From: Amphiscolops sp. MND2022
Lineage: Eukaryota
Direction of reading: 5' to 3'
DNA length: 64,000 nucleotides
Assembly: GCA_964187785.1 (NCBI GenBank)
Contig: OZ076409.1
Location: 57,414,001 to 57,478,000, forward strand
The position numbers and the translations under genes were made by a program. Position 1 is the stretch's first letter. Each line of letters starts with the position of its first letter. This document shows, in pieces, positions 1-35,117 of the stretch. The notes under the pieces were generated by a model. It did no database searches. It had not been told where the DNA came from and worked only from the letters and a program-made list of their open reading frames with translations.

Positions 1-2533
1 CACTGTAGGGACTGTAAGGGCTTCCATCCACTAGCTGCACAGTTTTGGCGCTACTACCAGTACAACTGACAAGAGCGGGCTTGGTTGAGATGGCACCCAT
101 GATGTATGACACCAAACTGATCTCAGCATCAGTTTGGCCCTGTATCCTCCCGGTCCGCTTGAGGAAGACCCGACACAGTTCGCTGTCTCGCCAGTATCGT
201 ATGAAGATGAGAACGAAGGCACCATCATTCGCAAATTCGATCGAGTACTCTCAATTGGAGTTTACTTGGGAGGCAATATCACAGATGATCTCGTGGAACA
301 TGTGATGGAACAATACCTGAAACAGAAAGACGAAGACGGTTACCACTGGATACCACCTTGAGAAGCAGAGTAGACTACTTCTAAGAAATAGTAAAAGTTT
401 ACTTACAGTCAAGCGCTCTTTGCTCCAGTTGAAATCAGTAAACAGAGCCTGGTGGTTCACGATGACCCCCACGTCACTCCAGAATAACTTCAGCACTTCA
501 AGATCGCCATACGAAGGGAGAAATCGGCCCAGTACTGACAATTGGATGCGAGCTCTGCTATCGGCCGATGAAGCCATGTAGTCCATGCCAGACATGTACT
601 CGTCATAGAAGGGAAGCTTTTGCCCGCTTTCTATCAGCTCAACATCAATAAAGTTTGGCAGCTCCAGTTCTAAATGGTAAGGGGTTAAAACCTTCCCGTC
701 CTTTCCTCGCACTTGGTGAATCTTGTTTTTAGTGACCGGATCGATTTTGTAGAGGTACTCGTACCTCCACCTTTGGTCTTTCCTCAGATGTTTTTCGGTG
801 GAGTGGTGACGCAGAATTTCCCTAGCTCCTTTCCCTTAGATGGAAATATTGGCCTTACAAACTTGGCAATAAAATTTGTATTTGTTCCACCTGGGGTCTA
901 CTGGCCCAGAGACAAAGGTTCGCGTCCACTCCATCCCCTTGAAGTACGCTTCCTTCATGATTTTGCAACTTCGGGTCACTTTTCGTCTTGCCCCTTGGGA
1001 AGCGGAACTCGTTGCTTGTCGCCCTCGCTTGCTAGTGGTTCGTTTGGAGCGTTCCTGCATTCCTTCTGCCTTCAAGGAAGCCAAAGTTTGTCCCCCGGGA
1101 CTGTCAGCGCAGTACTCGAGTGCTAGAGACCCTGAGTCCACTGGGCTATAACTTGTGCGCTTTGTGGAGGCACTTTGTGGAGGGGGAGCAATACCATCAT
1201 GACTGGGAGCTTCAAATGAGTACCCAATGCTGGAAAATTCGTCATCACTTTGTATAGCTCCGCTTGTGTCGCTAAAACGACCGGGAGTTTCGCTCCTAGT
1301 TCGCCGCTTTCCAAGCCCACTGGGTTCTGTCGAGGTCAAAGTTTGCAGGGATCCTGGTCCCAGATTCAATTCACTGGCTCTCTTAATCAGATCTTCAAGC
1401 GCACCATGAGCCGTCCGAACAGTCTCTTCTGCCACAACCTTCAGAACGCTGCTGATTTGGTCTTCTGTGAAAGCTATAACAGGGTGTCCTCTTGGAAGGC
1501 TTGAAGGTTCGACGTTGGCAAAGTACTCTTTGATTAGGGCCCGGCCACTTGACTTGAGGAAAGAGCTGTGATTAGTACCCTGTGTGACTACCGGTGCAAA
1601 GGCGCTATCTAAATCACCGGACCCAAGAGGGACCGCATGCCGCTTCAGATTCATGGCTTGACCTATAGTAGATCCGCCAGGATTCGTGGTAGACTCAACG
1701 TCAGTTTCTCGACCAAGTTCCGACTCGCTGTAAGTTGACGTTAAACAAGCAGCTGTATTGGAACGCTTGGCTCCAGGGCCAAATTGGGTTGTTCCAGTAC
1801 TAGTGGACGGAAGGTCATGGAGACCAGCTTTGGGAACCGGCAAAACTTCGAAGTTAGAAGAACTTTCCATTCTGGGCCTTTTACTAATCTCTTGGTTTGC
1901 CTTGTCACCTGCAGGGCTGGAAGCAGTTAGTGGCGGTTCGAGGAAAGTTACTATTGGATTCGGCAATTCTTGATCAGTAAAGTCAGAAAGCACGTTCAAC
2001 CCAGGAGTAACACACAGTTTTCCGCTTTCGCTCGCCTTTAGCAAAGAATTTGTCTCACTAGGTGCCCCTTGTGTGAAAGTTTCATCTCCTAGACTCATCA
2101 TCTTGCGTGCAAAATATGCTTGGACGCTCTCTTCTGAACTACTGGCGTCGGTCGCTAGCAGGTTGATTAAGGAGGGAGAGTAATCTGGCGATCCTGGCAG
2201 CTGAGATTTTGGGTCCACTTGGGTGGACGATTCTGGCGAGTTTGTCCCTTTGCAATCTTGCTCCAATGAGGCGTGAGAAGATGCTTCCTCAATTATTTCA
2301 ATCCCAGGCGTTAGCAATCTAAGCGGTCCTGGTGAAGGCGTAGTAGGACTGGTTACAGTGGTTTCTTGAGCTTCTAGACAATGAGTCTCTTCAGCGGCAG
2401 GAGGATTAGTGATCATTGGTGTTTCTCCGTTACTGTTACTCTCACTCTCAGTTCGAGTTGGTTGGCCGTTTGATTCTTTGCCTAAACGGAAAGAAATAAA
2501 TTCGGGCGACTCACTTCTTGCAAATATATCCAT
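1..2533 (-). pseudogene. Antisense cargo gene of element A: Ser/Pro-rich N-terminus, BED-like zinc finger, hAT-like domain; spliced, with in-frame stops
   Basis: ORF 836-2533 ends FYCQVCKANISI* and continues in frame as GKGAREILRHHSTEKHLRKDQRW into ORF 251-712. GT..AG intron 406-317 (90 nt). Second stop at 251-253, then EYSIEFANDGAFVLIFIRYW. Confidence 0.7.
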
Positions 2534-3697
2534 CTTGCCGCATTTTAAAACTTCCGGAAGTAAAGCTCAACTAATTCAACAGCTTTTGAAAATATTTCAC
2601 GATGGTGGAAGTAAAATTAGTCAAACCTAAACCCTGTTCAAGTTTAGTCTAGTCAAAACTCTAAAAAAACCAACCTGACGTTATTCCCATGATAGGAAAG
2701 CGGAATTCCTCAGACTCAACTATTTCGGTGAGATTTAGCTCTGTAGTCCTTTGGACTGGGGGACACAAATGTCTGTTACTTCCAAAGAGGTGAATATCCA
2801 ACTTCTTCCTTTTCCCTTCTGTAGCTGCTGCGACTCACAGGCAAGAAGTAAATCGGGGAATTCAAGTAGCAATGTAATAATTACACAATTCAATAGGAAG
2901 AAGGTGAACGCGTTGCATAAAGGCTAGACACAGAAACATATATAATGCTATATAGTATGCATTAACTTGACTTTCTTACTCTACTCGACTAAAAGGATAG
3001 TTTACCAAACGATTATTACATTATTCAAAAAAGTCGGTCATTAACTTTGTTTAAAGAGGACGTCGTGGCTTACCCATTAGTTCTTTCTCTCGTAATTATT
3101 CTTCACCTATTCTTCACACTTCCATACAATTATCTAATTAGTTTTTTACCATGAATGGAACCTGCCAGTGAAATTCACGCTCATTATTTCGCTTCCTAGT
3201 TTAGTTCATTTCATGAAAATTGCTTCGATTAGGGTTAAAACTCCATTTTCATTCATCATTTACCAAAATTTTCTTCATTTATTTATCGGAATCACCCTAA
3301 TGGTTGATTCGGTTGATGTAGCTTCGTGGACCGAAGGTCTTTGATGGTGGAAATATTTACTGACAGTTTACTTGAGTTAGCACTTAACTCACTCACTAAC
3401 TACTGTTAAGTGTTTGTGTAAACAACTTACAAGTCCCTCAAGGACCAATTAACATGAAATTTACCTCAGTTGTTACTTCTAGAAATTCCGTAAAATTACA
3501 AATATGGAATGTTTGGCAAGAATTTAGAGAAAATGAAAAACGGTTTCCCCGCTGGGGATTCCCGCGAAAAGGGTGAAACCACTAGTCCGAATAACTAGAA
3601 GAAAATCATTCAGTCAAATTTCAAAAGCCAAACCAGTTGACTACTAGCAAACCTCAAAATTGCCAAGAAAATCCTCCTTAGAAAATATAAATCTCAG

Positions 3698-4519
3698 ATG
3701 GGAACTCAATTCACAATTGATGAATTGGCCAAATGTTTGGTCAGCCCAGCCTACTTCTCTTCAGAGGAAGAGGAGGATATGGAAGTAGACATCCTGTCTG
3801 TGTCACCGCAAGGGACCGAACGTCACTTGGACGACAGTGACATAGAAGTCATCGCCTGTTATGGCCACGTGCCAATTGCCCCAACTAAACAGAATGCCAC
3901 ACGCAAGATGACTACGGACCTCTCTAGTTGCGTGGACGACGGGTTGCCCGAGTTCCCCTGGGACGACTTTTCGGACTTCTGGCCTGAAGATTTCAAAACA
4001 GCAATAGTCGAATTAGGAACTGGCCCAGACGCAATCGGCAGAGAGAACAATTGTCCAATCAACCAGTGCTCAAAGCTTGTCCCTCAGGTGGACACGCCGC
4101 TTTCTCCACCTCTGTGCGAGCAAGGGCCCAGCTATGGTCGTTATGATTACGCTGGACCCAATGTGACAGATTTTACTGTGCCCGTAAACTCTCACATTCA
4201 GGGGATTAGTGTGCGAATTGGAGCAAACTGTGGTGAACCGAACGCTGCAGCTTATGGAGATTGCATTGTGTGTGGCAGATCATACGAACAATTCCGCGAG
4301 ACTGCAGTCCTGACGTACCTTGAGTCGACTACAAGACGAGGCGAAACGCATTACGATCAACAGAGACGGAGAGATGCTTACTTAGCTGGAATGAACCAAG
4401 GGACAGTACTTTTGGTCCCTAGGGGAGTGTCGCAGGCTGCCGCCTGTGACGGGAATTATTATCAAATTCCCCAAGAATATGTAGAATCCAACCCCCCACC
4501 CGGAGTATTGCCAATTTGA
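3698..4519 (+). CDS. Small cargo ORF of element A (273 aa; acidic N-terminus, CxxC motif) overlapping the 3' LTR start
   Basis: Intact ORF. C-terminal GDCIVCGRSYE...GET...AYLAG...GVSQAAACDG aligns with GNCHWCGRTYD...GET...AYLDG...GLSQPRACVG read from elements B and C. Confidence 0.7.
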   Translation: MGTQFTIDELAKCLVSPAYFSSEEEEDMEVDILSVSPQGTERHLDDSDIEVIACYGHVPIAPTKQNATRKMTTDLSSCVDDGLPEFPWDDFSDFWPEDFKTAIVELGTGPDAIGRENNCPINQCSKLVPQVDTPLSPPLCEQGPSYGRYDYAGPNVTDFTVPVNSHIQGISVRIGANCGEPNAAAYGDCIVCGRSYEQFRETAVLTYLESTTRRGETHYDQQRRRDAYLAGMNQGTVLLVPRGVSQAAACDGNYYQIPQEYVESNPPPGVLPI

Positions 4520-6078
4520 AAGACTTACGGTAAAACAATTCATAACTATGTTTAATCTTATCCCAATAGTGCTATTTTATATTTTTACCGTGGCGGACCT
4601 GTGGTCCACACGGCTACATGTTAGTTTTCATTTTTACCTTACGGGAATATACTTAATTGATGAGTCCTGTGCCTGTTTGATTGATTAAATGAATTTGTAA
4701 TATAGTCAATTGAATGTAAAATAATGCGTACAATGCTTGCTGAATACTAGGAAACCTGTTCAAATGAACGCTTGTTGACGCCCAGCGTACGTACCGGCCT
4801 TATTTAAATAAACCAATCAGAGTGCTGTACATTCTTATCATTATTATTGCTGTAGCCACGTGGACCGAAGGTCTACCGTGGTGTTATTAGCTGCCAATTA
4901 GTCGATGCTATTATGTTTACTGTAGCCGCGCGTACTGTCAGTCCGCGACGGTTACTACTATTTAGAGCTGCAATTTAAATAAACTGATGTAGTTACTCGG
5001 ACCTTAAGTCTATTAGTACAGTAATAATGGACGATTTGTTTGTTATGATACTTGTCAGACTTGAAATATTAAAGTAAACATGTAACTATCCAAAGCAAAA
5101 TGTGCTAATTTTAGAACTAATATCACACTTACAGACCATTGGTCAATCCCTCCATTTTACCCTGATGCTATATTTAGCTGTAATTTGATGTAGTAATATT
5201 GACGTCATGTATCAAAATATAACCCGGGAGCTATTATTAGTACCATGACCAGCATAATTTTGCGGGTCATGCAGTGTGAAGTATATATAGCGGGGACCCG
5301 TAGGCCCCAGGATGATTCTTTCTGATTTCATGAAACTATCAACTATATACACTGCTGATTCAATTTGTTACGTTACGAGACTTATTGGAATAATAGACCG
5401 TTTGTCAATTCAATATTAATCTCCAAAGTTTGTTCAATGACATCAACAAGGAGACAGAATGCCAAAGAGAGACGCTCTGGGCAACTGGACATAATGTCTG
5501 ATGTAAAAAATGTTGATATAATGCTTGGAAGTTACTCTAGATGTGATGAAGAGAATAACATTAGCGAAAAAGAAGGGAATTTGGACTCAGGGTCTAGTAG
5601 ACCACAACAAAGTTCAAACGATATAGGAGAAGATTTCAGATCTTTACTTAATACCAATAGTAGGGAAAACAGCGAAATCACAATTGAGACCACTAGGTTG
5701 ATTAATGAGGAAATTTCAAATCAAATGTCTAGAAGACTCAATGAGGTCAAAACTAGCTTGAGTTCTCAAGTCCAGGAAGCTATCACAGCTGCAATAACAA
5801 GTACAGTGCTTCCGGCTATTCAAAATACGCTAGAAACGCAGGGGAGACTTGATTTCACCATGGTGGACCGAGGGTCCAACGGGCCACATCCGAGCCCAAG
5901 GCCAACGATTTCACCGTAAGGGACCGAAGGTCCAGTGGGCTACAACGGAACACCGAAGTTGGAAATGCTCAGAAATCGTGGGAAAATCGTCCCAGAACTT
6001 GCTTTACACAGGAAAATACTAGACTGAGGTCTAGAGAGGGTTCAACAGACTCTAATAATAGTGAACAAATTCACGACA
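4428..6078 (+). repeat. 3' LTR of element A (about 1.65 kb)
   Basis: Starts TGTCGCAG after the purine tract and ends ...TTCACGACA (or 2 bp later), similar to the ...ATTATCACA end of the B/C LTRs. Contains a gag-leader-like ORF (MTSTRRQNAKERRSG..., in 5365-5919) as the B/C LTRs do. The partner LTR is outside the window. Confidence 0.6.
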
Positions 6079-6640: not shown

Positions 6641-6905
6641 AGTTTCGTTTATGATCGCATGGATTTCGTTTTCGATTTCCACGCTATTCTAAAAGTTGAT
6701 TTGTAACAGTGAAAAAAAGTAGCATTTCCTGTTTTACGAAACTCAGTTAGATATGTGTTCCCGATCAAGTAAGTTTCTTGAACAGGAACGCATATCTAAC
6801 TGAGTTTCGTAATACAGGAAATGCAGCTTTTTTTCACTGTTACAACTCAATTTTTAGAATAGCGTGGAAAACGAGGACGCAATCCAAGCGATCATAAAAA
6901 AAACT
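6641..6905. repeat. Long imperfect palindrome (foldback/MITE-like)
   Basis: Arms of about 120 bp (e.g. TACGAAACTCAGTTAGATATG / CATATCTAACTGAGTTTCGTA) around a spacer of about 22 bp. Confidence 0.8.
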
Positions 6906-7131
6906 GATGCGTAATACGAGGGAGAATGCTTGCTAAGCTATTCAGACTTCTAAAGATAAAATAGGGAGTATAAATTGTGGAAGAAAATTCAGAATTTAGA
7001 CAATACAATCCCACTTCATACAATTATTTAGCATTACAGAATTGATATTGTCTCATGTTGGATGAGGGGGATAGAGATTAGATTATCGAACAACTTGCAT
7101 ATCAGCCTTGTTGGCGCTATGACATTATAGA

Positions 7132-8621
7132 TGTGATAATCCTCTTCTGTGCGATCCTCATTTATGACCACAGAGTCATTTAAATCAATGTTTTGTATGC
7201 TCAAAGGTTGCATTGGCGTTCTAAGTTCGTTTAAATTAGATGGCCTGAAAGGATTATCCTGTATCTCACATTCTTGATTTTCTGGTTCAGATGCGTTTTC
7301 TTCACCGTCTTCATTACTGGTGTATTTCGAGGTTCCTGCTTTGGCAGTGTTTTGTTCTCGATATCTTCTGTTTGGTACGGACTGTGTCCTTCTGTTATTT
7401 TTCATCTCTTTCAGTATTTTCTCTAATTTTTCATCCATTTCTTTTCTTAAGTTTGTTACTTCTTTATTCGTTTTATCTGTTATTTTTTGGGTCCAAATTT
7501 GCATTTCGTTTCCATATTGTGTTCCGCTATCTAGAGCTATTTCTTCCTCCCTAACTGAACTAACGTTTTCAAAGTTACTTAAAGTTTCAATAACAGTTTC
7601 ATTACCTTGTGATGTCTCTATTTCTGATGCGCTCAGCTCTCTCTCAAGTGAGGGTGATTGTCCTCGTCTAGATCTCCTATTTCTCTTGTTTCCCATTTTG
7701 GCCAGATTAAAATGCAATGTTGGAGAGAAGAATTTTAATTAAACTTGAGAAGCAAAGTGAAATCGGGTTGAAATGAGATTGAAGAAAATGTGCATAACGT
7801 TGAATTATCGAAGTTGAAACAAAGGTTGTGAAGATGAAAAGAGAGGTCTGATCAGTCTGGAAGTTTTCTGTTGAATGAATTTTATTGAGTTTCTTACTCT
7901 CCTTTTTGATTTGGGCTAAATTTAGCAGCATGACAACCAATTTTTGGAATGTCACGGTCACATCACGATTATGTAATTACTAAAAATAGTACCCAATCTG
8001 ATATAAAAATAGGTATGTAAGTTACATCACTTCTATAAATAGATTCCTGCATGACAAATATTTTCCTGCGTTTTGATTGGTCATCACACTAACTGTACCA
8101 ATCCGTTCATCGTTAATGGGAAAATGTGGCAACACGTAGTATGACTCATATGTAGTGCAAGTATTAATTCCAACGTATTACTGCATGCGTGATCAGATTG
8201 TTATGATGAATCATACTATCAAATGTCATGATTAAAAATATTAAAAATGTGAGGTTATACTGCAATATGCTGCAAACTTAGTAAAGCAATTCAATTCAAA
8301 TACTTAAGTCAGTATGCGTTAGTGTTACATAGAAGCCACGTATAATTTATTCTTTTCACAAGAATTCGCTTTAAACAGTATTATGCGTCAAATAAGTTAT
8401 CACCATGTAAAAAATCATTTATGAATGAGTGTTGTTTTACCAATCTAGCTAGCAACAATAGCAAACAAATTCAGACATAGCTGATAATCAAAAGTTATGT
8501 ATAAATCCATACAATATAAGTTTCAAGAAGTGATGAGTTGTCTCTGAATTCACTGCAGATGGGTGAGTCATTTGCCTTCAATGCTGCACCGCGGATCCAA
8601 CGCAAGCTCTAGGCTGCGACA
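7132..8621 (-). repeat. 3' LTR of element B
   Basis: Direct repeat of 13082-14577 with roughly 30 differences counted by eye. Confidence 0.95.
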
Positions 8622-10484
8622 GGCCAGCATTCTTGAAGTAAATGAGTGCTGCCTCGAACCCATCTAGATAGGCCCGTCATATGATGTTTCTATTTCTCAC
8701 TGTCTCGCCTGGGTATTCAGTCGTAGCTGTATAGGCCGCCAGAGCATCAAGAGCAACTTCGTCGTAAACAATTCTCGATGTCATCTTTCTTTTAGCTTGC
8801 AATTTTCCCGGCGATTTCATAGCAGACTCAGAGTTATGCTCCTGTTTTTCATTTAAATAGCTCCATAACAAAATACACTTTGTGATTTCCGTTTATGGTT
8901 ACAATCGTTTCAATTATCCCAACAAGATGAAATTTCTTTTCGCAGCTTCCATATATGGCGAATAGAAGCGTTGACTTTTCCATTCAAAGTGACAAAGGCA
9001 CACTAAATTATTATAAACAAATATGAATGAAGCTTTTCATGATGAATTTTAACAACCCGGATTTTATTTTTTGAATTTTACAAATTTTATGAAATTTTAC
9101 ATGCAATCTTAAATAAAACAACGAGTAAAATAGAAATGAAAGTTTATGGGGGCAAAGTTTCTGTATAATTGTGTATTTAAACACTACAGAGTTTCTCAAA
9201 AGTTTAGGTTCACACTCATTTACTTTCTATATCCATCTCATATTGTTCATTTCAGCATCATGATGTCAACTGAATGATACACTGTTATCTTCATAGCAAT
9301 AAAGCGATGCATGGGGTCATGAGATGCTGTTTCTTTTTAGGTCAACACCAGTTCAAGTTGTACTGCAAGATGCATTTCACTTTGCGCTTTTCTTCGAACT
9401 GCCACTAGGGGGCGACGCATCATGCGTATGTAAATGAATTCGGTTATGCTGTATTAAGTACCAATTTCGCTGGCAGGTTTGATCGGTTTCCAAATATTTC
9501 AGCCAATCAGCGCGCAGTTTTTGCGCAAATATGTTAATGTAATTTGTTGAACCGGAAGCCACGCCGCATCTTTTGTTTGTTTATCGTATCAGTTTTGGTC
9601 AGTTTCAAAGTCGTTTGTCGTCAAATTTCTCTAAATTCTTCAATTCATCAAGTTTCCATTTTTATTTTGTAATCATAGTTTGTAGTTCAGCTTTCATTTC
9701 CAATCAGCAATTTTCTTTTGAATTCGTAATTACAATTCCATTTTTATTTCTTGCTTCACTTGGTTGTTTACCAAATGGTGCGTTCGCGTTCTTCTTCCCG
9801 CAGGAAGGCAACCCCCCGCAGAAGAGAGCTGCAGTTGCTAGGAATCTCCGGTCATCCACTACTACTACATCATGCGGTAAGCTTGAATTTTGGTTGATTT
9901 TTCTGATTGACTCAGACAGTATTTTTTTTCTTTGTGACGTCACGGATTTTAAATGCAAGTTGGCCAGACTCACATTTTGGTGTCGACTATCTTTTGATTT
10001 GTCAACTTCCGGTTTCCGAGTTTTGGGCGGAAATAATATTTTTCCTGTTACTGATTTCTGTTATCGACATCAGTACAATGCAGGATTTTTGTTTCAGATT
10101 CTTCCGCAGCTCAGCCGCGAAGTAGAGTTTCTAAACCTTCTGATACCAGCAAAGCGCCCGTAACACAACAAACTGTTTCCTGGAAAAATTTTCCCAGCGG
10201 ACAATTCCGGATGATCTTCAACTTCCCCCAAGCTTGACCCCTGTTGTGAGTCCTGTGGTGCAGCGCCTGACTGAAGTCCAGGTTATCCCTGATTGCGTGG
10301 TTTCGAGTTCAAAACAGAAGAAAAAGAGTAGTGCTAGTGTCCTCTAGAACAGACATCATCTGTTCCCGCAAAGGATGGTTTTCTGATTTGTATCTATATA
10401 CTTTTTGTTTGTATTTACTATTCCATTTTAAAAGAAAAGAAGAAGATGAGAAGTATGAGGACTTGAGATTTGTTAGTCTTTGTT

Positions 10485-13400
10485 TGTAATATCTGTATGA
10501 GTCTGAAATGTTAGGGTTTGGGTAGGGTCGTAAATTGTATTTTTCACCACGTGTATTGTTAGGGTTTTTTTCTTTTTGAACCTCATCATTTTCTTGATTT
10601 TCATCTGTATTTCCTGAGGATTTTTCTGCATCAATAGTAGGGTTAGGTTGTAAGTCTTGTTGATTATCAATTGCATCAATTTCATTTTCTGCATTTTCGG
10701 TTGGGGTTTCTTCATTAGGAACTGCAGTTTGTTCTACCGGGGCTCCCCTACTGTTTTTTGAAATTTCGAGGGAATGTGGGCGGTTTATCGGTACATATTC
10801 TTGTATCTCATCTTGTTCGTTATCTGGGAGTTCTGTGTCAAATGGATCTGTACCAAAGTTTGTATCCCATGTGTGGGCATACAGATCATCGTGTGTTACT
10901 ATTATGTTGTCATCTTTTTGCCAATCTGTTTCTCCGATAAAATTATCTGCTAGTGGTGCACTAGGTGTAAATTTTCTCAAACGTATTCAGTGTAACAGTT
11001 GTGATTTGTTTGTCCCTATTCTTCGTACAATGTAGTTATTGTTAGGTAGGACATTTTTGACCCTGTAGGGATCTATCCAACGGAATTCTCGGAACGGAAT
11101 TTTCGTTGCTTGTGTATCTGCTTTTGGGTTCAGTTTGTAGCAATAGTCTGTTGTAGTAAGTGGTGCTTTTGCAAGTAGTGGTGTTGATTGTCGTGTTGGA
11201 AGATTGTGTTCTGGTTTCAGTTGCATTGATAAATGCGGAAAAGTTAATACTCCTTGTCGAATGTCGAAAATGGCATTGTTCCTTTTTAGGAAGCAAAGTC
11301 CAATTAGAGGATTGGGTAAGACTTTCATAACGATGAAATTTTCTTTGAACTTAACATCTGCCACTTCAAATGTTAGGCAGACTGTTCCGATTGGTGTTTC
11401 CAATTGTCCGTTTGCTACCATTATTTGAAAATTGGGTGCGGGACCTGTGTCTGTTATTGCTTCCGGTGCAAGGAGTTTGATTTTATTTAAATCTTGTTCC
11501 GATATTGCGCTCGTGAGAGCTCCAGTATCGACTAGACCGTCAAGTGTAAGCTTTTCAAAATCCATTGGAAAATAATACATATGGCGTTTGCTTTTTAGTG
11601 TCAGGTTGGTTGATAGAAGAAGCATTGGTATATCTATTTCTTTTATTAATTATAACATGATTTTGAATTTCATCATCTATGAGGGGTAGGTTTTGTGTTG
11701 ATGCAGGTTCGATTGGTACTTCAGATGGGTCTTGTGTTTGGAGAGGTTCGGGTAAATTTTGTGGTGAGGTTTCGTGTTCGAATTCATACTAATTGTTAGA
11801 GATTTTTTCGTTATTTTTGTTATTTTTGTCAAAAGTTGTGGTTGTATATCTATCAGGGGCGTCTCTGTATATTTCATACGAATCGTCTTCTGATTCATTT
11901 TGTTGATTTTCTTGAGTCTGAGATTCAGTGTTATGTGTGAAAGTGTTTGTTTTTATTGGGTGAGGAGTTGGATGCTGCCAGTCATCTTTCTCCTCTGGTT
12001 TTGTGGCGCGTGGCCTTATTAGTTTAAATCCTTCGATGATGAAGGTTGTTGACGGGGTGCTTTCGGGTTAATATGTTTGTTGGAGTTTTTGTAATTTTCA
12101 CTGAGTTTTTTCTGTGCTTCAGTTAGTGTCCACTTTGGGGGGTGGTTTTCCATATTTGCTCCGAAGTAGCATTGTGGTTCCTCATGTCCTGGTGCGTTAC
12201 AATGCGTACAACGCATGGCCTCAGTGTCTTCTTCCAGTTTACGACGTTTTGCTAGTTTAGCGCTGTCTGCTGCCTTGTGCCCCGTGTTTTTACAAAAACG
12301 ACAATGGTCATCTTGCAATGTTTTGTTGGGCACTATTTTTGGTGTTTGTTGCTTCTTTGTTGTTGCAGTTTTCTGCTGCGTTGGTTTGTCTTCTGCTTGT
12401 TTGTTTATTACCGCCATTTGCGTTTTAACGCCAGCGTCTTCTGATTCAAGTCCGTTTAATTCCATCTCACGTTCGAGATGTCGGATTATTTGCTCGTATG
12501 TTCCATTCTCAAGATAGGCTTGATTAATAGAACGTTTCAAATGTGGTGGCATTTTTGCATATAATAGACTTTTTATCATTTGTGATGCAATGTCACGGAA
12601 AGCTTTTTCGGCGCTTTTTTGTAATTCTTCTAGGAAGTCTGGTAGTTTCTGGCGTTCCGGGTCAAAAACCAAGCGACATATTTTCTCCTGAACACTACCA
12701 GTATATCTTCAAGTGTGGTTGTTGGTGTTCGTTGAATATTTTTGAATGTTTTCAATGCTAGTCCACGCAAATGTGCGTGAAAATGATTTATTTTCATTTC
12801 CTCAGTTAATGCGGGTTGCATTCTGAGTGTTGTGTGGAAAAGATCTTCGAAATATTCGAATTTCTCGTTCTTTTCCAATTTCCCATTGAAAGTGAGTGTA
12901 TTTTTTGGATGAAAGAGTGATGGTTGTGTGTTGCGGCTTGCTAGTTTCTCAATAGCCATTGCTATTTGATTAACGGGGTCTTGCTGAATATTGAGTGGTT
13001 AAGCAATGAGATGTTCATTGTGTGTTGTTGTTGTATTGTTTGAGCTTTGACGATGAAGAGGTTTGGTAGCTCCTGTCACCATGTGATAATCCTCTTCTGT
13101 GCGGTCCTCATTTATGACCACAGAGTCATTTAAATCAATGTTTTGTATGCTCAAAGGTTGCATTGGCGTTCTAAGTTCGTTTAAATTAGATGGCCTGAAA
13201 GGATTATCCTGTATCTCACATTCTTGATTTTCTGGTTCAGATGCGTTTTCTTCACCGTCTTCATTACTGGTGTATTTCGAGGTTCCTGCTTTGGGAGTGT
13301 TTTGTTCTCGATATCTTCTGTTTGGTACGGACTGTGTCCTTCTGTTATTTTTCATCTCTTTCAGTTTTTTCTCTAATTTTTCATCAATTGTTTTTCTTAA

Positions 13401-13650
13401 GTTTGTTACTTCTTTATTCGTTTTATCTGTTATTCTTTGGGTCCAAATTTGCATTTCGTTTTCATTTTGTGTTCCGCTATCTAGAGCTATTTCTTCGTCC
13501 CTAACTGAACTAACATTTTCAAAGTTACTTAAAGTTTCAAAAACAGTTTCATTACCTTGTGATCTCTCTATTTCTGATGCGCTCAACTCTCTCTCAAGTG
13601 AGGGTGATTGTCCTCGTCTAGATCTCCTATTTCTCTTGTTTCCCATTTTG
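10485..13650 (-). pseudogene. gag-protease-integrase C-terminus remnant of element B
   Basis: ORFs 12999-13667, 12630-12959, 12019-12672 (CRFCKNTGH, CTHCNAPGHEEPQC), 10987-11625 (GLVDTGA ... FREFRWIDPYRV) and 10309-10980, broken by stops and frameshifts. Confidence 0.9.
13065..13081 (-). promoter_or_regulatory. Primer binding site of element B
   Basis: TGGTGACAGGAGCTACC directly follows the LTR-terminal CA. The equivalent in C is at 32963-32979. It resembles tRNA-Leu-type PBS, but the tRNA is not established. Confidence 0.75.
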
Positions 13651-14577
13651 GCCAGATTAAAATGCAATGTTGGAGAGAAGAATTTTAATTAAGTTTGAGA
13701 AGCAAAGTGAAATCGGGTTGAAATGAGATTGAAGAAAATGTGCATAACGTTGAATTATCGAAGTTGAAACAAAGGTTGTGAAGATGAAAAGAGAGGTCTG
13801 ATCAGTCTGGAAGTTTTCTGTTGAATGAATATTATTGAGTTTCTTACTCTCCTTTTTGATTTGGGCTAAATTTAGCAGCATGACAACCAATTTTTGGAAT
13901 GTCACGGTAAATCACGATTATGTAATTACTAAAAATAGTACCCAATCTGATATAAAAATAGGTATGTAAGTTACATCACTTCTATAAATAGATTCCTGCA
14001 TGACAAATATTTTCCTGCGTTTTGATTGGTCATCACACTAACTGTACCAATCCGTTCATCGTTAATGGGAAAATGTGGCAACACGTAGTATGACTCATAT
14101 GTAGTGCAAGTATTAATTCCAACATATTACTGCATGCGTGATCAGATTGTTAAGATGAATCATACTCTCAAATGTCATGATTAAAAATATTAAAAATGTG
14201 AAATTATACTGCAATATGCTGCAAACTTAGTAAAGCAATTCAATTCAAATACTTAAGTCAGTATGCGTTAGTGTTACATAGAAGCCACGTATAATTTATT
14301 CTTTTCACAAGAATTCGCTATAAACAGCATTATGCGTCAAATAAGTTATCACCATGTAACATCTGGTAAATCATTTATGAATGAGTGTTGTTTTACCAAT
14401 CTGGCTAGCAACAATAGCAAACAAATTCAGACATAGCTGATAATCAAAAGTTATGTATAAATCCATACAATATAAGTTTCAAGAAGTGATGAGTTGTCTC
14501 TGAATTCACCGCAGATGGGTGAGTCATTTGCCTTCAATGCTGCACCGCGGATCCAACGCAAGCTCTAGGCTGCGACA
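13082..14577 (-). repeat. 5' LTR of element B
   Basis: Direct repeat of 7132-8621, flanked by the TSD on the outside and the PBS on the inside. Confidence 0.95.
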
Positions 14578-14934: not shown

Positions 14935-15885
14935 CTTGGCTGTCGGAAATATGCGGGTTTTTTCTACAAAATATGCAACTTTATGTTATTGAATGTCGTG
15001 AAAAATATGCAAATTCGTGTTTTCGAAAATGACTAACATCATAACATTTCTTGTTGGAAATAAAGTTGGTATGGATTCAAAATGTGTCCTTTCAATTAGT
15101 TGAGCTCACAAACAACTGAAAAAAGTGCTTTTGTTGGCTAGCTTGCATTAGTTAGGTGATAAAGTGAGGGGTAAAAAATCAGCTGTAGCGATGACAAAAA
15201 GTTTATCAAACATGAAATTTTCAACCGCAGTTTTTTTTCGAAAATTAGAGTCAACTCTTGAGAAAAACGCAGTTGAATCTTAAATTTTAGGAATCAACAT
15301 TTAGATTTCTGGGGAATATGCAGTTGCATATGCGGAACATGGTGCCGTTGTAAGTTCGCCATATTTAAGTTCGCCACGTATAAGTTAGCCCGTAAAACTT
15401 AGCCACGTTTAAGTTAGCCACCATATAAAATCGCCACGTTTATTTTCGCCACATTTCAGCTAATGAAAGAATTCCATATCAGCGATTATTTTCATTTGGT
15501 TATTTTTAGTGGCGATTAGCATACTTGTTATATGGCTCGGTCCCTTCGCTCCCTTCGCCAAGTAGCAACATTGAGGCATGGCCATATGGCACGTCGCTCC
15601 GCTTCGCTTCGCTTCGCTCCTGCATTGAGGGCACTAGGGGTATGTGAACATATCTGACTACGTTATCGTAATTTTGAATGCTCGAATTTGATTGGCCGAA
15701 AATGTGGCGAACTTGTATGTGGCGAACATATATGGGGGCTAAATTAAATATGGCTAAGATTTAGGGGCTAACTTATATGTGACGAACTTAAAAGTGGCGA
15801 ACTTAAACGGACACGGCGGAACATCAAAAGCTAAAAATATGCGGGAATATGCAAAAATACGTCCCGCATATTTCTGCCAGCCATG
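14935..15885. mobile_element. hAT-like non-autonomous element (MITE)
   Basis: TIRs CTTGGCTGTCGGAAATATGCGGG / CCCGCATATTTCTGCCAGCCATG; degenerate 8-bp TSD CTCGTAGC / CACGTAGT. Confidence 0.7.
15341..15815. mobile_element. Mutator/foldback-like MITE nested in the hAT-like MITE
   Basis: Perfect 9-bp TSD GCGGAACAT (15332-15340 and 15816-15824); inverted arrays of subterminal AAGTTCGCCAC / GTGGCGAACTT units. Confidence 0.8.
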
Positions 15886-17158: not shown

Positions 17159-19015
17159 TCAATTTCTGAGCCATGCAAAGTACCTTATTTTGAATGTGTT
17201 TCTGAAAAGGTTGCCCCTGAGGTGAAAGAAGAAGTTGAATGCGTGGTTTGCGAGAACGAATATTCTTCCTACTAAAGCAATGCATTGCAACCCTTCGTCT
17301 CCCAAAACATCTTTGTCCGAATGGTTGGCCAGAAACGTCATTGGCACTCCGATGATCATGCACAGCAGGAACCACGCACATATGAGTTGACAGCTTGCAA
17401 TAGCCTTGCGGTCTTCCAAGGACAAATTTGGCTGGGCTTTTGTTTTCTTCCCTTCATTTTGCGACTTTTCATGAGCTTCAACGCCCTTCACTGCTCCGCT
17501 ATCCAATGTTATCCGCACTTTATCCACTTTCATTTTGCTTTGGGCTTCTGAAGAATTAGATCCCCCAGAGCTGGTTGATAACTGAGATGTACATGGATTC
17601 TCACTTGATCTTTGGTTTCCTTCGCTTTGGCTTGAAATGTTGCAGTGCCACTGTGGCCGCTTCTGCGTCCCGACAAAGCTCACTTTTGTTTCTTCCTTGA
17701 TTTTTTGCGTTTGCTCATCTTCCTTTTCTTCTTCTTTTTCTTCCTTTTTAGATGCCTTAGTTTCCTTTGGCAAAACGAGTTCCTGCTTGACTTTGTCCCC
17801 AATCGTTCTCCCAATGACAGTTTGCTGGCTTCCCTTCTCGTCTGAATCTGGCACAGTGACAGAATCACATTTGGAATCCTCGACTTGATTTTGTAGAGGA
17901 TATGTTGCGTTATTTTCTGCTGCTGCTGCTGCAATAGAAGCATCGCCAGGCATGTCATGATCGTGCTGCTCGATATCGACTGTAACCTGAACAACCTGAG
18001 ACCCACGTTCGATTTGATTCGATGTCGAAACAGCAGTGAAATGATCGTCAGGAACACCAACTGCTGTTCCACCCGCAATGTTATCATGTTTTGGTGTCTG
18101 GGAATTCTCAGCGATGGGGTTATCGTTTTCCACGAGGACACCGACTTCTCCGTTCGTTGCTTCTGGAGCAGAACCCCGCGGAAGCTTGGGCTGTCTGGGG
18201 TGGTTCAGAGCCGACACGGGTAGCTTCGGTTTTGGGGTTCGTCTTTCACGCATTTGATGGATAAATATGGCTGTAGTGACGGAAATGATAGCAAAGTGTG
18301 TGAAAAAGGAACAAACGGTTGTTAAAAATCCATGATATAGTGTAGCCAGTGTATTTTTGTCTGGAAATTCTTTACAAATATTTTCATCCAGTTGGGAGAT
18401 GAAGAAAACCGGGACAAAAAGTATCAAGTACAGTAAGGAAATGGCCAATGAAATCTTTCTGTTTATCTTGTTCCAAGAGAGAGTGTAGTGCAACGTCGGA
18501 TATGCCATGTTGAAAGCCCGGTCGACTGACATAGCGACAAGGTGAGCGTTGGCGATGGTAATAGTTCCAGACCCAGTGCAAGAGAGAACTTTGCAGACAA
18601 TTTCATTCGAACTGGCCAAATCTATTCCAAACAGACGAAATACCCCTCTCACAAGTCCCTGTACAAGTGCCAAATTGTCCCAGATTGCAATGTACTTCAT
18701 CCAAATTGTGCCAGATGTTGGACGGCGAAACTGTCTGGCAGTGTCAAAAACTATCCAGTTGAAAAGAAGGCCAACAACGCAAATTCCTACCTGTATTGCA
18801 AACATGATATGACGGAAAGGTTTTATCTGGATGATAATCCAGTAAAACCAGTTCAATTTGCCTGAGTCCAGAAGCTCATGAGTGGTTTCATTAATCAAAG
18901 ACAAATTCAGCGAACTTTTACTCATCCTCTTCAAAAACTTTTGATGTCCAAAAATTTGAACCATATTTTTAACAAACCCCCTTCCCCAAGCGGCTGCTTT
19001 CATTATAAGGAACAA
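17159..19015 (-). CDS. Rhodopsin-like (class A) GPCR, single exon, long third intracellular loop
   Basis: 618-aa ORF with seven hydrophobic segments; TM1 GLLFN; TM2 IAIWD; Cys before TM3; TM3 end AMSVDRA (DRY-like); TM7 ANHAFNFFFH. The true start may be a downstream Met. Confidence 0.85.
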   Translation of the reverse strand: MFLIMKAAAWGRGFVKNMVQIFGHQKFLKRMSKSSLNLSLINETTHELLDSGKLNWFYWIIIQIKPFRHIMFAIQVGICVVGLLFNWIVFDTARQFRRPTSGTIWMKYIAIWDNLALVQGLVRGVFRLFGIDLASSNEIVCKVLSCTGSGTITIANAHLVAMSVDRAFNMAYPTLHYTLSWNKINRKISLAISLLYLILFVPVFFISQLDENICKEFPDKNTLATLYHGFLTTVCSFFTHFAIISVTTAIFIHQMRERRTPKPKLPVSALNHPRQPKLPRGSAPEATNGEVGVLVENDNPIAENSQTPKHDNIAGGTAVGVPDDHFTAVSTSNQIERGSQVVQVTVDIEQHDHDMPGDASIAAAAAENNATYPLQNQVEDSKCDSVTVPDSDEKGSQQTVIGRTIGDKVKQELVLPKETKASKKEEKEEEKEDEQTQKIKEETKVSFVGTQKRPQWHCNISSQSEGNQRSSENPCTSQLSTSSGGSNSSEAQSKMKVDKVRITLDSGAVKGVEAHEKSQNEGKKTKAQPNLSLEDRKAIASCQLICAWFLLCMIIGVPMTFLANHSDKDVLGDEGLQCIALVGRIFVLANHAFNFFFHLRGNLFRNTFKIRYFAWLRN

Positions 19016-19794
19016 GGTTCAAGAACCATTGTGTCGACATGGTTTGCGGTGGACTTTCGGCACAATAAAACGCCCGCTGACCAGCAGTATGTTTTCTGTC
19101 CAAACAACTGTTAGCAACGACTGAATTTTGAGGCTCAAGAGTAGCCAATGCACTGTAAAAACGCATAGAAGTTTTGAATCTTTTGATTAAAATCCTCCCG
19201 TTTAAAAAGGAAACACTTAATTCAAGAACACAGTAAAAACCTAAGTGTTTTGTTGTCGAACTATATCTGAAAATTTTTGAAAAAACGCTCAAAAATACTT
19301 GCATAAAATTGTCACGAACGTTTCATTTTTGGTTATTCTGCGGTTATTTTCCTCAATAGAAAACTGCAAACTCTTTAAAACTAATACTGCGTCGCGAGTT
19401 ATTTCGGACGGAGCCTAATGGAACAATGCTCGGCAAAAAGGTTTAAAAAACGTTTCCGATGACAATTTTGTTCTATTTTTATTCGAAACGCTTACTGATA
19501 TCTTTATGCTGAGCCTGATGATTTTTCTATTCCAAAAGCTTTGGAAATTGTCCAAAATTAGGAGTAATTTGTTAATATTTTATAAGTTCGAATTACTTTT
19601 GACTTCTTGTTAATACGTTTGAGGAACTTCATTCAACTTTTTCTCTCGAATAGCGTTTTTGGTTGCGTTTTCTTCAACGCTTAGGTCACTGGATGGTCTA
19701 ACAAAAAGTTTGAAGTGAACAAAAATGGGACGATTTTGTCAAACAGTTAGTTTTTGCAGAGTTTTTGGTATCTTATGTGCTTTTGTGTCCTACT

Positions 19795-20692
19795 TTTGAT
19801 AATCTTCCTCTGCGCGGTTTTCATTTATGATTACAGAGTCGTTTAAATCTATGATTTGTATATTCGAAGGTTGCATTGGCGTTCTAAGTTAATTCATATT
19901 AGACGGCTTGAAAGGATTATCCTGTATTTCATTTTCCTGGTCTTCCGGCTCAGATGCGGTATCTTCATTGTCCCTGTTGTTTGGTTTTTGAGGTTCCTGC
20001 TTGAGGGTATTTTGTTCTTGATATCTTCTGCTCGGCACAGATTGTGCTCTTCTGCTATCTTTCATCTCTTTCATCTATTTCTCCAATTTTTATTCATTTC
20101 TTTCCTCAGGTCTGATAATTCTTTATTTGTCTTTTCGGTTATTCTTTGAGTCCACACTTGCATTTGAGAACCACTTACTACCGCCTATTTCTCCTTCCCA
20201 AACCGAATCAACATTTTCAAAATTACTAAGAATTTCAATAGTAGTTTCATTACATAGTGATGTTTCAACCTCAGATGCGCTCAAGTTTCTCTCAAGTGAG
20301 GGTGATTGTGCTTGTCTTGGTCTTCTATTTCTTCTATTTCCTATCTCAGCCAGATGAAAATATTGTTTGTTGGAGGGAAGAATTTTTAATAAATTGAGAG
20401 ACAAAATAGGATAAAGTCAAACGAGCCGAGAACGTCCAAAGTCGGCGCCATATCTAAGGCTCAAAATTGAAAAAGGGGCACTCTTCGGGCTTTGAGAAAC
20501 TCCAGCTGGTTGCAAAAAATGAAAAAAAATAGAAGGGGGACCCTTTGATGACATGAAAAACTTTCCCAAAAAAATTTTTCAATTAGATTTTTGAACGGTG
20601 TCACAGTGCCGAAAAATATAAAAGACTTTATAAAATAGACTTTTGCCATCATTGCTGCACCACGGATCCAACACAAGCTCTAGGCTGTGACA
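19795..20692 (-). repeat. 3' LTR of element C, partly deleted and interrupted by a HINE-like fragment
   Basis: Homologous to 32980-34106. About 430 bp are replaced by 20421-20635. Confidence 0.85.
20421..20635 (-). mobile_element. Truncated Helentron-associated (HINE-like) repeat
   Basis: AGTCGGCGCCATATCTAAGGCTCAAAA and AGTGCCGAAAAAT are shared with the element at 46530-46908. Confidence 0.7.
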
Positions 20693-21593
20693 GGCCAGCA
20701 TACTTGAAGCAAATGAGTGCTGCTTCGAACGCACGCGATCTAATGTTTCTGTCTCTTACTGTCTCGCCGGGATATTCAGTTGCGGTTGTATAGGCTGCCA
20801 GAGCATCTGAGCAACTTCATCGTAAGGTCTACCACACCAGTGTCAGTTCCCCTGAACGTGTGACATAACAGGAGTGTTAAGCTGTCTTCGTAAGGGGTTC
20901 TTCTGTTGCTGAGTAGAATTTTCACATCGGGCAGCACCTACATCAAACGTCTCCAGGTTGCTATGAGTGCCTTGGGTGTCCAGGTATAACTGACCAATGG
21001 CGTTACAGTAATATGCAACATTAGGAAGCTCGCTTGGTTGTAATATTCCGGCATTTATGTCATATGGGTACTGACCCATACCTTGGGTGACTAATTTTTG
21101 GTAAGTTCAATTGAACTCTCGGTACGCTGTATTGATTTATCATGGGTGTCTGCATTTTTCTCTCCCATTATACGGGTGAGCATAGTTTGGTTGAGGGATC
21201 TCATGCGGTATTACTAAGGGTGTAATAGGTATAGGCCTGATTGGTCCATTCACTTGGTCGTTACTGGGGGATTAATAACATTAACGTCAGATCGAGTGGG
21301 TATATGCCTTGTCGGTCTTTCAGCTTGCATGGGCGGAACTCTCAGCACAGGTCCACCGTAGTTGTTCCTCGGGACATTAGCAAATTTGGCATTTGTTAGT
21401 AAGTCTCCACTGTCACTCTTGATTCAAAGAACGAAAAAGGTGAGATTTTAGGTAATTTGGTATGTTCCGAGATCATACTCAGCATTTCCCTTTCAATATC
21501 AGTGACGGTGATATCTATTACAGAGTCTTCTCCTTTTTCAGATTCACTTACAGCGATCAATCTGACAGCGTCTTCGTTAACAAAGGCTGTCAT
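20649..21593 (-). pseudogene. Small cargo ORF of element C (homolog of 3698-4519), decayed
   Basis: N-terminal SESEKGEDSVIDIT resembles SSEEEEDMEVDIL. C-terminal GN*HWCGRPYDEV...YPGETVRDRNI...GLSQPRACVG; the duplicate near 34250 keeps CHWC. Confidence 0.65.
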
Positions 21594-22865
21594 GGGGTCA
21601 TTAGGTGGTCCCCAAATTCTAAATCTCTGGTCTATAGGTTCTGAGTTAGATTGTTCAGTCACAAACTCTCCCCAGAGTCGCTAGAAATGTTCAATAATCC
21701 GGGGGAGTTTGTAGAGACGGATCGCATGTCTTCGTCGATTGTGAAGAGATGAGAATTTTTTGGAGGTCTATGGTCCATCCGAATTTGAAATTATCAACTG
21801 ATTCGTTTCGTGAATATTCGCAGAACAAACACTTTTCGCTTCTTTTCGGTTGGTGTGTATTTTCCCGGGGCTTAGGGGTGTCGTAAACAATTCTCGATGT
21901 CATCTTCCTTCTAGTTTACGGTTTTTCCGGCAATTCCAAAGCAGACGCAGGGTTATGTTCCTAATTCTTCATTTGAATAGCTCCATAACAAAATATAATT
22001 CACCTTGTGAATTTCATTTATGTACTGATCGCTTCACAACAAAATGATATTTTTCTTCGTAGTTTCCGTTTATGGCGGATAAAAGCGTTAAATTTTCTGT
22101 TCAAAGTGACAAAGGCATAATAATTGACTGTAAACAAATATGAATGAAAATTTGCATGACGGAGTTTAACAACTCATTTTTTATTTTTGAATTTTACAAT
22201 TTTTTTTTGAAATTTTCATGTAAATTTAGTTGGGATGAATAACATCATCAGAACTAATGCACTAATACAAATACATCTCGAGTTATTTATAGGCATAAAG
22301 TTACAAGGGTAAAACATGACTATCTCAAATTTTCTTGTTTCATGTTGTTTATTTCAGCAACAGAATGCCATTTTCTGGGTACGGAGTTATTCCATGGTGT
22401 CAAAACGATGCAGGAGGTTATGTGATGTTTTTCATTTTAGGTCAAATACCATCTCACGTTGTACTGCAAGATGCATGCAATTTGCTCATTTCTTCATACA
22501 GTCACTAGGGGGCGGCACATCATGCGTATGTAAATGTTCTAAGCCGCACTGTTCTAAATACCAATCTCGCTGGCAGGCAAGCTTGGTTTCAAAGTATTTC
22601 AGCCAATCAGCAATGAGCATTTGCGCAAATATGCTAATTGCGTTTCATCCAGCCAGAAGCCACGCCATATATAATTTTGTTTGTTTGTAAAGTTTGGTAA
22701 TCCAAAGTCAATTTTCACAGTTTCACAGTAATTTCCACCAACATCTCCTTGCTACCTGATTTCGTATTTCTGTCTGTAACGCACAATCCTTTATTTTTCA
22801 TTCTCTTCATTGTTAATTTCAATTGTTAAATAGTTGCGCCTTTCCATTTCCAATTCTCCTCCACT

Positions 22866-25800: not shown

Positions 25801-27192
25801 GATGGATGACATCATCATCAAGGATCGTGTGCTGGTTGTACGACTGTTTATCATTCGCCACATTCTAAGCCAGTGTTAGTATTTTTTTTCATTGTTTCGC
25901 TTCGATAGATATTACCTTAGTAAATTTCAATGCATGGCACAAAATTCCTTCTATTCTAATGGTTCCTCCATAGTGGTTTCATATCATACTTCATTGGTTT
26001 CTTCTCGTTTCACACAATTCAGCTTTCAAGGAAGTGGAAACGAGTGTAGCTGGAGGATTTTGTATCTACAACCAGTTCTGTGTTTTCGTGTACACACTGA
26101 TGCAAACCATTTTTCCTACATCCTTCCTTGGGAGCATCAACAATTGGGAGAGCTACATGCAGCTGAACATGAGTGAAAGCACCCTGCCTGTCAAAACAGT
26201 TGATGAATTTTTGCAGTACAAGAACCTCTCCGATTAGCTGTACAGGAACAAGAACCCTACCCCTCGAAAGTTTGTTGAGCAAGCTATATCTTTCTATCGT
26301 TAGTTTATAAAACTGTTGTTTTCGTGTGAAGTAACTACATCGTCATTTGCTCGTGGGCTGTCATCGTTTGACGAGGCTGGGATCCGTGATGGAGAGGAGG
26401 CACAGTACGAGGACTCTATTCAGTTCCTTGCTGGGTACCTCGTTCAACAACGATGGATATCCCCCCATACCAAACCCGTTGTGATTAGTGAGTTCTGCTC
26501 TCCCGTCACTAAAATCCGAGCCGACAAAGTCCATATTTCACAAGAATTGGTCAGCTTCATTTCCTGTTACTATGATCTTCAGTGTAGGGTTAAATTTTCC
26601 CGCATCTTTAAGATTGGCAGTGAAACTCTGAGAAGCCCTTGTTTTCCTCCCCTACACTTTACTGTATCTCTGCCTGGTTTAAAGTCTACCAAAATAGAGT
26701 TTTCTTCTTGCGTGAGACGCCTCCAGTGTTCCCTTAGTTCCATCCAAAAAGTAGAGAGACTTTTCTTGTCTCCGACTGCCCTCCCTCGCACATACGAGCT
26801 CCTTAATCAAGGGCCCGGGCTACTTTTAACGCGCAAGTTCTCAGTGTGGAATTATCTGAGTTCTACTCCATTTTTGAAAATTGGCCTGCTATCTACTTTG
26901 GAGTCCTGTTATGCCGAGAATGTTGCTGTTGACAGTCGTACTTGGATTACTGGAGAGAGAACCCAGCCTTTGTTCTAGCCGTACTAGCAGTATTGCCAGT
27001 TCTCCTGTAAAGTCTTCTTCTTTAAAGTCTTCTCCTGAGAAAACCAAGCAGCCAGCTACTACAGGTTCCGTTGTTGCCCCAGCAGTTCGCAGTTTGATTG
27101 AACTTCCTTTCCTGACTGCCTCAACTTCTACTGTTCCTTCCACTGGTGATAAGAAGAAGAACAAGAACGGAAAACCCACTGTGCCTCAGTAG
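22866..27192 (+). pseudogene. Antisense, multi-exon cargo gene of element C (BED-like finger plus hAT-like domain), decayed
   Basis: Putative ATG at 22866 with donor at 22975 (also in B: ATG 9775, donor 9877). Finger region HPNKCRCRN*LVQLSLKTKGPLKMLRHYRTDAQL. Intron 24588-24656, then ALLTHMFHE...SYSLQLAF...LFVNIW. Probable intron about 25144-25584. Ends with 26316-26978 and a Ser/Lys-rich tail. Confidence 0.65.
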
Positions 27193-27336
27193 ATCATTGG
27201 ATTTAGTCAAACTTTGTTTACGCCAATGACTTGACTTAGACTACAACTTTTCTGCAATTGTCATTGCTCTTTTCTTCATTTTTGTTGATTATTTAACCGG
27301 AACAAGGGAGTTGAATTTGTATTACTTTTGTTTTTA

Positions 27337-33300: not shown

Positions 33301-33545
33301 CTGATACTTCTTTATTCGTCTTTTCAGTTGTTCTTTGAGTCCACACTTGCATTTCGTCCTCGTTTCGAGAAACACTTACTAACGCTGTTTCTCCTCCCCA
33401 AACCGAATCAACATTTTCAAAATTACTAACAATTTCAATTGCGGTTTCATTACATTGTGATGTTTCAACCTCAGATGCGCTCAAGTCTCTTTCAAGTGAG
33501 GGTGATTGTTTTTGTCTGGGTCTTCTATTTTTTCTTATTTCCCAT
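27337..33545 (-). pseudogene. gag-pol of element C
   Basis: Fragmented ORFs: gag; protease; RT (KIDCSQAYH, LAQGL, QYVDDI); RNase H (MSDASF, FTDN); integrase (QMDI, IDVFSRY, C-terminal WIGPYKV). Confidence 0.92.
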
Positions 33546-34669: not shown

Positions 34670-35117
34670 ATACAGGCTGTGACACTACTCTATCATGAAA
34701 CTGGAGTTAACTCTTCAAAGCCTAATATGCATTTGTTTTATTCGTCTATGAAAAATTAGACAATTGTACGTCAAGAAATGTTTCGAAATACTCAAAGAAC
34801 GTGCATGGATTATGTCGCAACTTGGAGACTTTGGAGTTTTAGATTCTTTATACTTTTGTTGGCGGCAGTCATCAGCAGGGAAAGAAAAAACGATTGGGAC
34901 CATGCTAATTGAAAAACAAGAATCAAGTTCTTCGAAAGTTGGAAGCAAATTCACAGAAAAGTCGACCATTACCAATCTGCAAACACCCCCAAGGGGTTTT
35001 CTCGAAGACTTTTGGTCATGGAGCCAAGAAAATTGGCACACATATGGGGTACCTAACACTAACACGTCGACCAAATTTCACGTTCATTTGCCTTTATAAT
35101 CCCATTTACCTCTCACA

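Follow-up and report, generated by a model that had tools for sequence, protein, structure and literature searches.

A repeated, fixed-spacing DNA motif in an animal Ty3/gypsy-type retrotransposon as the probable operator of its own antisense cargo protein

The question raised by this locus is what protein, if any, reads a long motif that recurs on both strands of a single retrotransposon. In the window (the whole 64,000-nucleotide stretch analysed), the 32-bp consensus TGTAGCC-N4-GGACC-N3-GGTCY-N3-RYGGT occurred in about ten copies over 6 kb of one element, here called element A (Table 1). Among its relatives the motif is a family-wide, fixed-spacing, repeated DNA site of animal Ty3/gypsy-type retrotransposons. 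It is probably an operator for the element's own antisense cargo protein, which would act as a family-specific regulator, as judged from sequence comparison.

Table 1. Positions in the window of the motif copies and of the element A features that carry them.
Feature	Positions	Strand	Remarks
Antisense cargo gene, runs off the window	1..2533	-	GT-AG intron 406-317; broken copy
Extra motif copy within the cargo exon; the motif's top strand is the coding one	1119..1150	-	23.8 bits; kept in cargo relatives
Extra weaker motif copy, intergenic, about 210 bp before cargo start	2742..2773	+	17.6 bits, against 11.8 bits for the best outside element A
Motif copy in the divergent intergenic region, some 350 bp ahead of the ORF2 start	3317..3348	+	32.5 bits, left-out score
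ORF2, 273 aa, acidic N-terminus, conserved CxxC, ends within LTR	3698..4519	+	283 relatives
Degenerate possible motif copy inside ORF2	3805..3836	-	14.7 bits; core 12.0 bits, at background level
3' LTR, TGTCG...CGACA, after purine run	4428..6078	+	Ends placed from start and stop of relatives' fragments
Motif copy, LTR upstream part; 12-pair hairpin possible	4587..4618	-	Fold z -4.1
Motif copy, LTR upstream part; hairpin possible	4851..4882	+	Fold z -3.0
Motif copy, LTR upstream part, variant core; hairpin possible	4921..4952	+	Fold z -3.5
Weak motif copy, limited to core and left arm	4988..5019	+	9.1 bits; core 19.9 bits
Extra motif copy (core and left arm), gag N-terminal region	5575..5606	-	19.4 bits; profile rho 0.84 with copy 5857; kept in relatives
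Motif copy within gag frame	5857..5888	-	Matrix score; kept in Gag relatives
Motif copy within gag frame, tandem partner of 5857	5913..5944	-	Matrix score; kept in Gag relatives

Element A corresponds to the 3' end of a Ty3/gypsy-type retrotransposon. The left end of its LTR was preceded by AGGGGAG, and four of the six ORF2 fragments examined began at that boundary; at the right boundary, 71 of 119 Gag relatives ran on into a primer-site peptide, 28 diverged and 20 had no anchor. The LTR contained the promoter features CCAAT (4811), a CRE-like site (5200) and a TATA-like site (5282). The 5' part of gag lay inside the LTR, with its start at 5437 and a frameshift near 5900 in element A; capsid-type and zinc-knuckle matches were found in Gag relatives, and both pol and the second LTR of element A lay beyond the window. 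The LTR began at 4428, and a role of the motif as LTR start was ruled out. A reading of the copies as terminal inverted repeats of small DNA transposons (3317-4618 and 4851-5944) was also set aside, as no target-site duplication was seen by eye and copies lay in conserved frames. The window also had animal-like gene features, namely a GT-AG intron and a rhodopsin-family receptor.

The seven copies listed by the sequence-only reading were all found at its coordinates and on its strands, six of them strong and the one at 4988 weak; their occurrence on both strands and the location of six of them in the LTR were likewise as it had described. Left-out matrix scores were 30 to 38 bits for the six strong copies against a background maximum of 9 to 15 bits (122,578 positions), and one background position scored as high as copy 4988. 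A 24-base pattern allowing two mismatches or fewer gave six matches (0.01 expected), and an unseeded search recovered the motif at 32.9 bits, against 12 to 13 bits in three shuffles. The matrix of the 24-bp core added three copies (1119, 2742 and 5575), all above the best core score in the other 58 kb of the window (11.8 bits). Nothing in those 58 kb, a small sample, exceeded that score. The exact full pattern was absent from viral contigs and from prokaryote genomes; metagenomes gave two matches, each a single copy in a GC-rich contig otherwise unlike the window, and both chance-like.

The motif had been called palindromic, with freely varying spacers, and each description held in part. The central 13 bp formed a true dyad, but the whole site was polar, as the TGTAG end had no mirror, and the outer CC and GG blocks were offset by one base. 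The spacers were free in part only, column 11 being a pyrimidine in 7/7 copies, and they were complementary in copies 4587, 4851 and 4921 (11/12 pairs) against 2/16 pairs in the remaining four. Copies 5857 and 5913 shared flanks within the gag frame, which indicates a single tandem duplication.

Coding copies were assessed through the protein sequences of relatives, as peptide patterns; all of these relatives were ENA records, possibly from one assembly. Read on the gag strand, the core gives D-x-x-S-x-[GRE]-[LPRQ], which was present in frame in 184 of 185 Gag relatives, with 456 matches against 4.75 in shuffles (the pattern was tuned on these proteins) and none in the 44,205 Gag-relative residues past the LTR-encoded part. 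Where I, V, M or F were allowed, 264 of the 278 unique units carried L, P, R or Q (two carried I or M), the mark of a fixed first base, and some first-base changes, silent or stop-creating and so hidden in protein data, could explain part of this fixity. As the residue swaps followed bases and not chemistry, they indicate a constraint on DNA. Two of the three correlations between the change profiles of the gag copies, rho 0.73 and 0.84, exceeded all 175 control windows; the third, rho 0.46, was matched by 8 of the 175. Changes were fewer in block columns than in spacer columns (p = 0.031) or in linker columns (p = 0.027), a modest difference obtained on a tree of 101 rows, with 14 distant Gags and four short rows left out. 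The Gag linker held one to eight tandem motif units, with seven or eight in some Gag types.

In the cargo gene, the copy at 1119 is read from the opposite strand as C-S-[RQ]-x-D-[LP]-x-S, and 34 of the 63 near-clade cargos had this peptide at the corresponding position (0.33 in shuffles). One set of bases was thus retained outside coding sequence and also as two unlike peptides, which means that the constraint acts on the nucleic acid itself. Conservation in family members, proposed earlier as a check, was seen in the proteins of both Gag and near-clade cargo relatives. There is good support for the earlier proposal of a sequence-specific DNA-binding site, since the motif occurs in both orientations and its bases are conserved, on opposite strands, in two proteins across hundreds of relatives.

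These observations bear on two alternatives in which no protein would read a double-stranded site. One, that the copies are leftovers of a repeated peptide or of tandem duplication without function, is scarcely credible and is largely refuted: the tandem pair 5857/5913 would suit it, and the D and S of the gag pattern could be kept by the protein like other linker serines, but the bases recur outside coding sequence and, from opposite strands, in gag and cargo, where they encode two peptides, and swaps among L, P and R or among R, G, W and E are senseless at the protein level. The motif might instead act as a stem-loop in RNA or single-stranded DNA, such as a TAR-like element or a replication signal, an option that the sequence-only reading had kept in the form of an RNA hairpin and that is highly improbable. 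The three non-coding LTR copies folded well (z -3.0 to -4.1) and had compensating spacers, and two outer pairs were slightly above shuffle in coding copies (p 0.01 to 0.03, relatedness not corrected). The other four copies, however, did not fold beyond a 5-bp core. In 264 coding units the inner pair did not covary (51/103 against 51.3 expected), the outer pairs were mostly unpaired (29/130 and 19/155), and Rfam gave only sub-threshold matches, none of them over a motif copy. The motif occurs in both orientations, and family-wide support for a hairpin was absent. A double-stranded site fits best, and greater symmetry probably accounts for the three copies that fold. A likeness to a tRNA A-box or a ribozyme was dropped because the A-box adenine was not kept and both strands occur.

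The sequence-only reading had proposed a BED-finger cargo protein as the ligand. A BED-like finger was present, but the protein was larger and looked like a whole, spliced, catalytically dead hAT transposase. It had a long Ser/Thr/Pro-rich N-terminus, a C2H2 (BED-like) finger and a putative RNase H-like part, and the copy in element A was broken, with a stop codon at 836-838 and a disrupted frame near 251. There were 148 cargo relatives, many of them within multi-member clusters (ENA records), and the finger, CxxC-x16-H-x5-H, was found in 107 of 120. Pfam gave a sub-threshold C2H2 match only and did not match zf-BED, a PDB sequence search with the cargo profile gave nothing significant, a CGGBP1-like lead from the Atlas (0.75) was below the bar, and the cargo did not match the window's own hAT. 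A Foldseek search with the cargo model ranked Hermes transposase first (E 0.56) and the ZBED1 BED domain third (E 0.94), neither significantly. Structurally, the Hermes match had Z 5.9 and rmsd 5.2 over 112 aligned residues, tied with other RNase H-like folds; with a second cargo model, Hermes was not listed and no match exceeded Z 5.

The expected places of the first two catalytic Asp, set by the hAT pattern and the Hermes offset, were occupied by E or A at the first and by S or T at the second in the 13 proteins that span this region. From the modelled fold and these places, the cargo is likely a catalytically dead hAT transposase. In Hermes, N67 and R70 read bases, and the part before the finger helix contacts bases (PMC10368747). 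The cargo places matching these two residues (aligned by eye on His spacing) held E in 104 of 107 proteins and R in 103 of 107.

Matching cargo and Gag by the length of their contigs gave 36 pairs, four of them clearly discordant, the links being noisy. Their distances co-varied (Mantel rho 0.41, p = 0.0002, 33 pairs, the three pairs with short N-termini being left out). Of the 15 contigs of cargo cluster P0054, 10 were shared with the 572-residue Gag type, whereas the remaining cargos shared 1 of 266. This clade had an altered loop before the finger helix, and it lacked the motif's TG end at two coding sites (H or Q in 0/13 and 0/8, against 69/78 and 154/161 elsewhere) and at a third (Cys in 0/8, against 29/44). 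The TG end is altered in concert at three sites that are unrelated to one another, which suggests a clade-specific binder, although this amounts to a single event. The 677-residue Gag type had H or Q in 0 of 53 linker units and 9 of 17 N-terminal units, with cargo linkage on 0 of 23 contigs; as it mixes both motif ends, the TG end is possibly just dispensable. The Gag capsid tree was distorted by frameshifted members and showed only that the 572- and 568-residue types group.

The suggested comparison of motif variants with cargo subfamilies thus gave one matching clade, a single phylogenetic event on a long branch. The cargo protein as candidate ligand gained indirect support from the co-divergence of cargo and Gag and from a motif end and a finger loop that differ in the same clade. 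From the presence of the motif, the constraint on its bases and the co-inheritance of cargo and Gag, all observed, we infer binding and its effect. ORF2 is a second candidate ligand, absent from the sequence-only reading.

Two sister elements, B and C, shared the layout of element A, and C had the pol order RT-RNase H-integrase. The cargo of C was distant from that of element A (20% identity). No equivalent motif array was found in B and C (best 13.6 to 16.6 bits, against 14 to 15 bits in three shuffles). Both carried a CTCF-like site, so the sister elements appear to use host-type sites.

In the preferred reading, several cargo subunits would engage the CC/GG half-sites through their zinc fingers and their DNA-binding domains, with predicted contacts at top-strand columns 5-7 and 14-16 and bottom-strand columns 20-22 and 30-32, modelled on the Hermes fingers at a quasi-palindrome. 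The long disordered N-terminus would recruit host machinery. Cargo multimers at the LTR promoter, the divergent promoter and the gene bodies would probably keep the element and its kin active in trans; the likeliest effect would be activation or anti-silencing, with feedback on the cargo's own promoter, and repression is less likely. The sites would multiply through tandem duplication. The wider proposition, that a captured and disarmed hAT transposase was made the trans-regulator of an animal LTR element, with an operator spread across the element, including two reading frames on opposite strands, and changing with the zinc finger by clade, is put at slightly better than even.

Several results weigh against the cargo as the reader of the operator. 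Finger and motif changed together only once, on a long branch, and the 677-residue Gag type mixes motif ends; the array was found in neither of the sister elements, although C encodes a distant cargo; in the far cargo clade the finger loop was the same, and the in-gene copy was found in 1 of 44; the hAT origin comes from non-significant fold matches and the contig-length links are noisy. In one alternative, a host multi-finger transcription factor or insulator protein binds the sites while the cargo has another role, as Su(Hw) binds gypsy. The core was steady in all 185 Gag relatives while cargo cores spanned 53 to 100% identity, a zinc-finger array would match a long, polar site whose spacers are free, and B and C bear the CTCF-like site instead; the left half of the motif, which has the spacing of the REST site but lacks its ACC and AG bases, also counts for a host factor. 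A fixed host protein would, however, hardly account for the clade-wide TG-end change at three unrelated coding sites, and the 58 kb of other repeats and host DNA, a small sample, contained no copy. A host factor is considered unlikely, although with more weight than the remaining candidates. In one of these, ORF2 or integrase/Gag would bind the sites, or the cargo would tether or protect the integration complex on the DNA copy. ORF2 is family-wide, with an acidic N-terminus and conserved cysteines, and seven LTR sites would stand at both ends of the linear DNA copy. The ORF2 profile, however, had no Pfam or PDB match and no known DNA-binding domain, copies 1119, 2742 and 3317 are distant from the ends, and an ORF2 homologue, recognised by eye, is retained in B and C, which lack the motif; this explanation is improbable.

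As a self-encoded regulator, the cargo would have its closest functional parallels in plant DNA transposons. Spm/CACTA TnpA and Arabidopsis VANDAL-VANC are transposon-encoded regulators that act on dense motifs of their own families; TnpA is transposase-derived, and the TnpA and VANC motifs are clade-specific and spread as tandem repeats (bioRxiv 10.64898/2026.08.24.746577, PMC5735166). The element A family would resemble them in its motif cluster (ten copies in 6 kb, none in the other 58 kb of the window), its candidate self-encoded regulator and the tandem expansions in its Gag linkers. TnpA and VANC, however, belong to plant DNA transposons and have motifs of 8-10 bp, non-coding for VANC, whereas element A is an animal LTR retrotransposon with 24-32 bp in coding frames. 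Its protein, a candidate regulator with putative binding and demethylating roles, looks hAT-derived, unlike TnpA and VANC.

By position, the nearest likeness is to the Retand/Tat Ty3/gypsy elements of plants, which have a long region from pol to the 3' LTR, an antisense TRP28 gene for which DNA binding and regulation were proposed, and family-specific tandem repeats; the available part of the source reports TRP28 in flowering plants only (PMC11963269). Both families have an antisense gene at the same position, named after a transposase in Retand, but the cargo did not match TRP28 profiles, and no cognate site is named for TRP28 in that part of the source. By domain, Hermes, CGGBP and ZBED proteins combine a BED finger with a DNA-binding domain and act cooperatively on imperfect palindromes with strict spacing (PMC10368747, PMC8097297), and hAT-derived CGGBPs bind varied motifs, a CGG-type preference being common (PMC8097297). 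These are active transposases or host genes, whereas the cargo is a spliced, multi-copy retrotransposon gene without a Pfam zf-BED match.

The element A family is a member of none of the TnpA/VANC, Tas, Retand and CGGBP systems, and the literature searched (partial coverage, supplements excluded) held no LTR element with a captured hAT regulator. Self-encoded, sequence-specific regulators that defeat silencing are known for plant DNA transposons, and the function of the Retand antisense gene is only guessed; in the element A family a candidate protein can be named, the site is defined and both vary naturally among clades, which makes the role of an accessory gene testable. If the preferred reading is true, a transposase was domesticated by another mobile element and not by a host, and a class II regulator circuit runs a class I element.

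A comparison by layout only may be made with Tas of the foamy viruses, which is the product of a sense-strand retroviral gene and for which, to our knowledge, no transposase origin is known. The sites of element A are likewise at LTR and internal promoters, as foamy virus Tas/Bel1 binds DNA at the LTR promoter and at an internal promoter (PMC517496). The accessory genes of tunicate Tor elements are treated in PMC4402516.

The antisense cargo gene of element C, one of two sister elements (B and C) of the Ty3/gypsy-type element A, encoded a protein of the same kind as the zinc-finger cargo of A, distant from it (20% identity) and broken. Its finger helix differed from that of the cargo of A, and no motif array was found with it. 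No relationship was detectable between the hAT transposase ORF of the window and the cargo of A.

Features of the window outside element A
Feature	Position	Strand	Remarks
Element B	7131-14577	-	
Element C	19797-34672	-	
Element C cargo	about 23200-27000	+	antisense
CTCF-like site	9402-9414, 22502-22514	-	conserved intergenic block of B and C
GCA-N3-TGCAGTA	8258-8270, 9361-9373, 14207-14219, 22462-22474	-	elements B and C
Inverted repeat	6641-6905		265-bp, near-perfect (88%)
Second inverted pair	15342-15814		contains 15-bp tandem units
Tandem duplication	36633-41826		unit ~2.6 kb, 89-90% identity
hAT transposase ORF	57065-58699	-	DUF659 + dimerisation domain
Rhodopsin-family receptor ORF	17159-19018	-	619-aa

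The word GCA-N3-TGCAGTA occurred in the intergenic region and in each LTR of element B (one copy each), and also in the intergenic region of element C, a placement (intergenic plus LTR) that is the layout of the spaced motif of element A. With one mismatch allowed, its count was no higher than chance. The two sites that we take to resemble a CTCF site (2 matches vs. 0.15 expected) were accompanied by two CCAAT boxes, and were absent from element A.

Element B is a young, non-autonomous copy, with 97.6% identity between its LTRs and a 5-bp target duplication (TCTAT); it was internally deleted, and an RT search gave no match. The inverted repeats at 6641-6905 and 15342-15814 are probably MITE-like.

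In A (LTR at 4428-6078), B and C, genes overlapped both LTR ends, with the ORF2 stop codon falling within the LTR and approximately 200 codons of gag lying inside it, upstream of the primer site.
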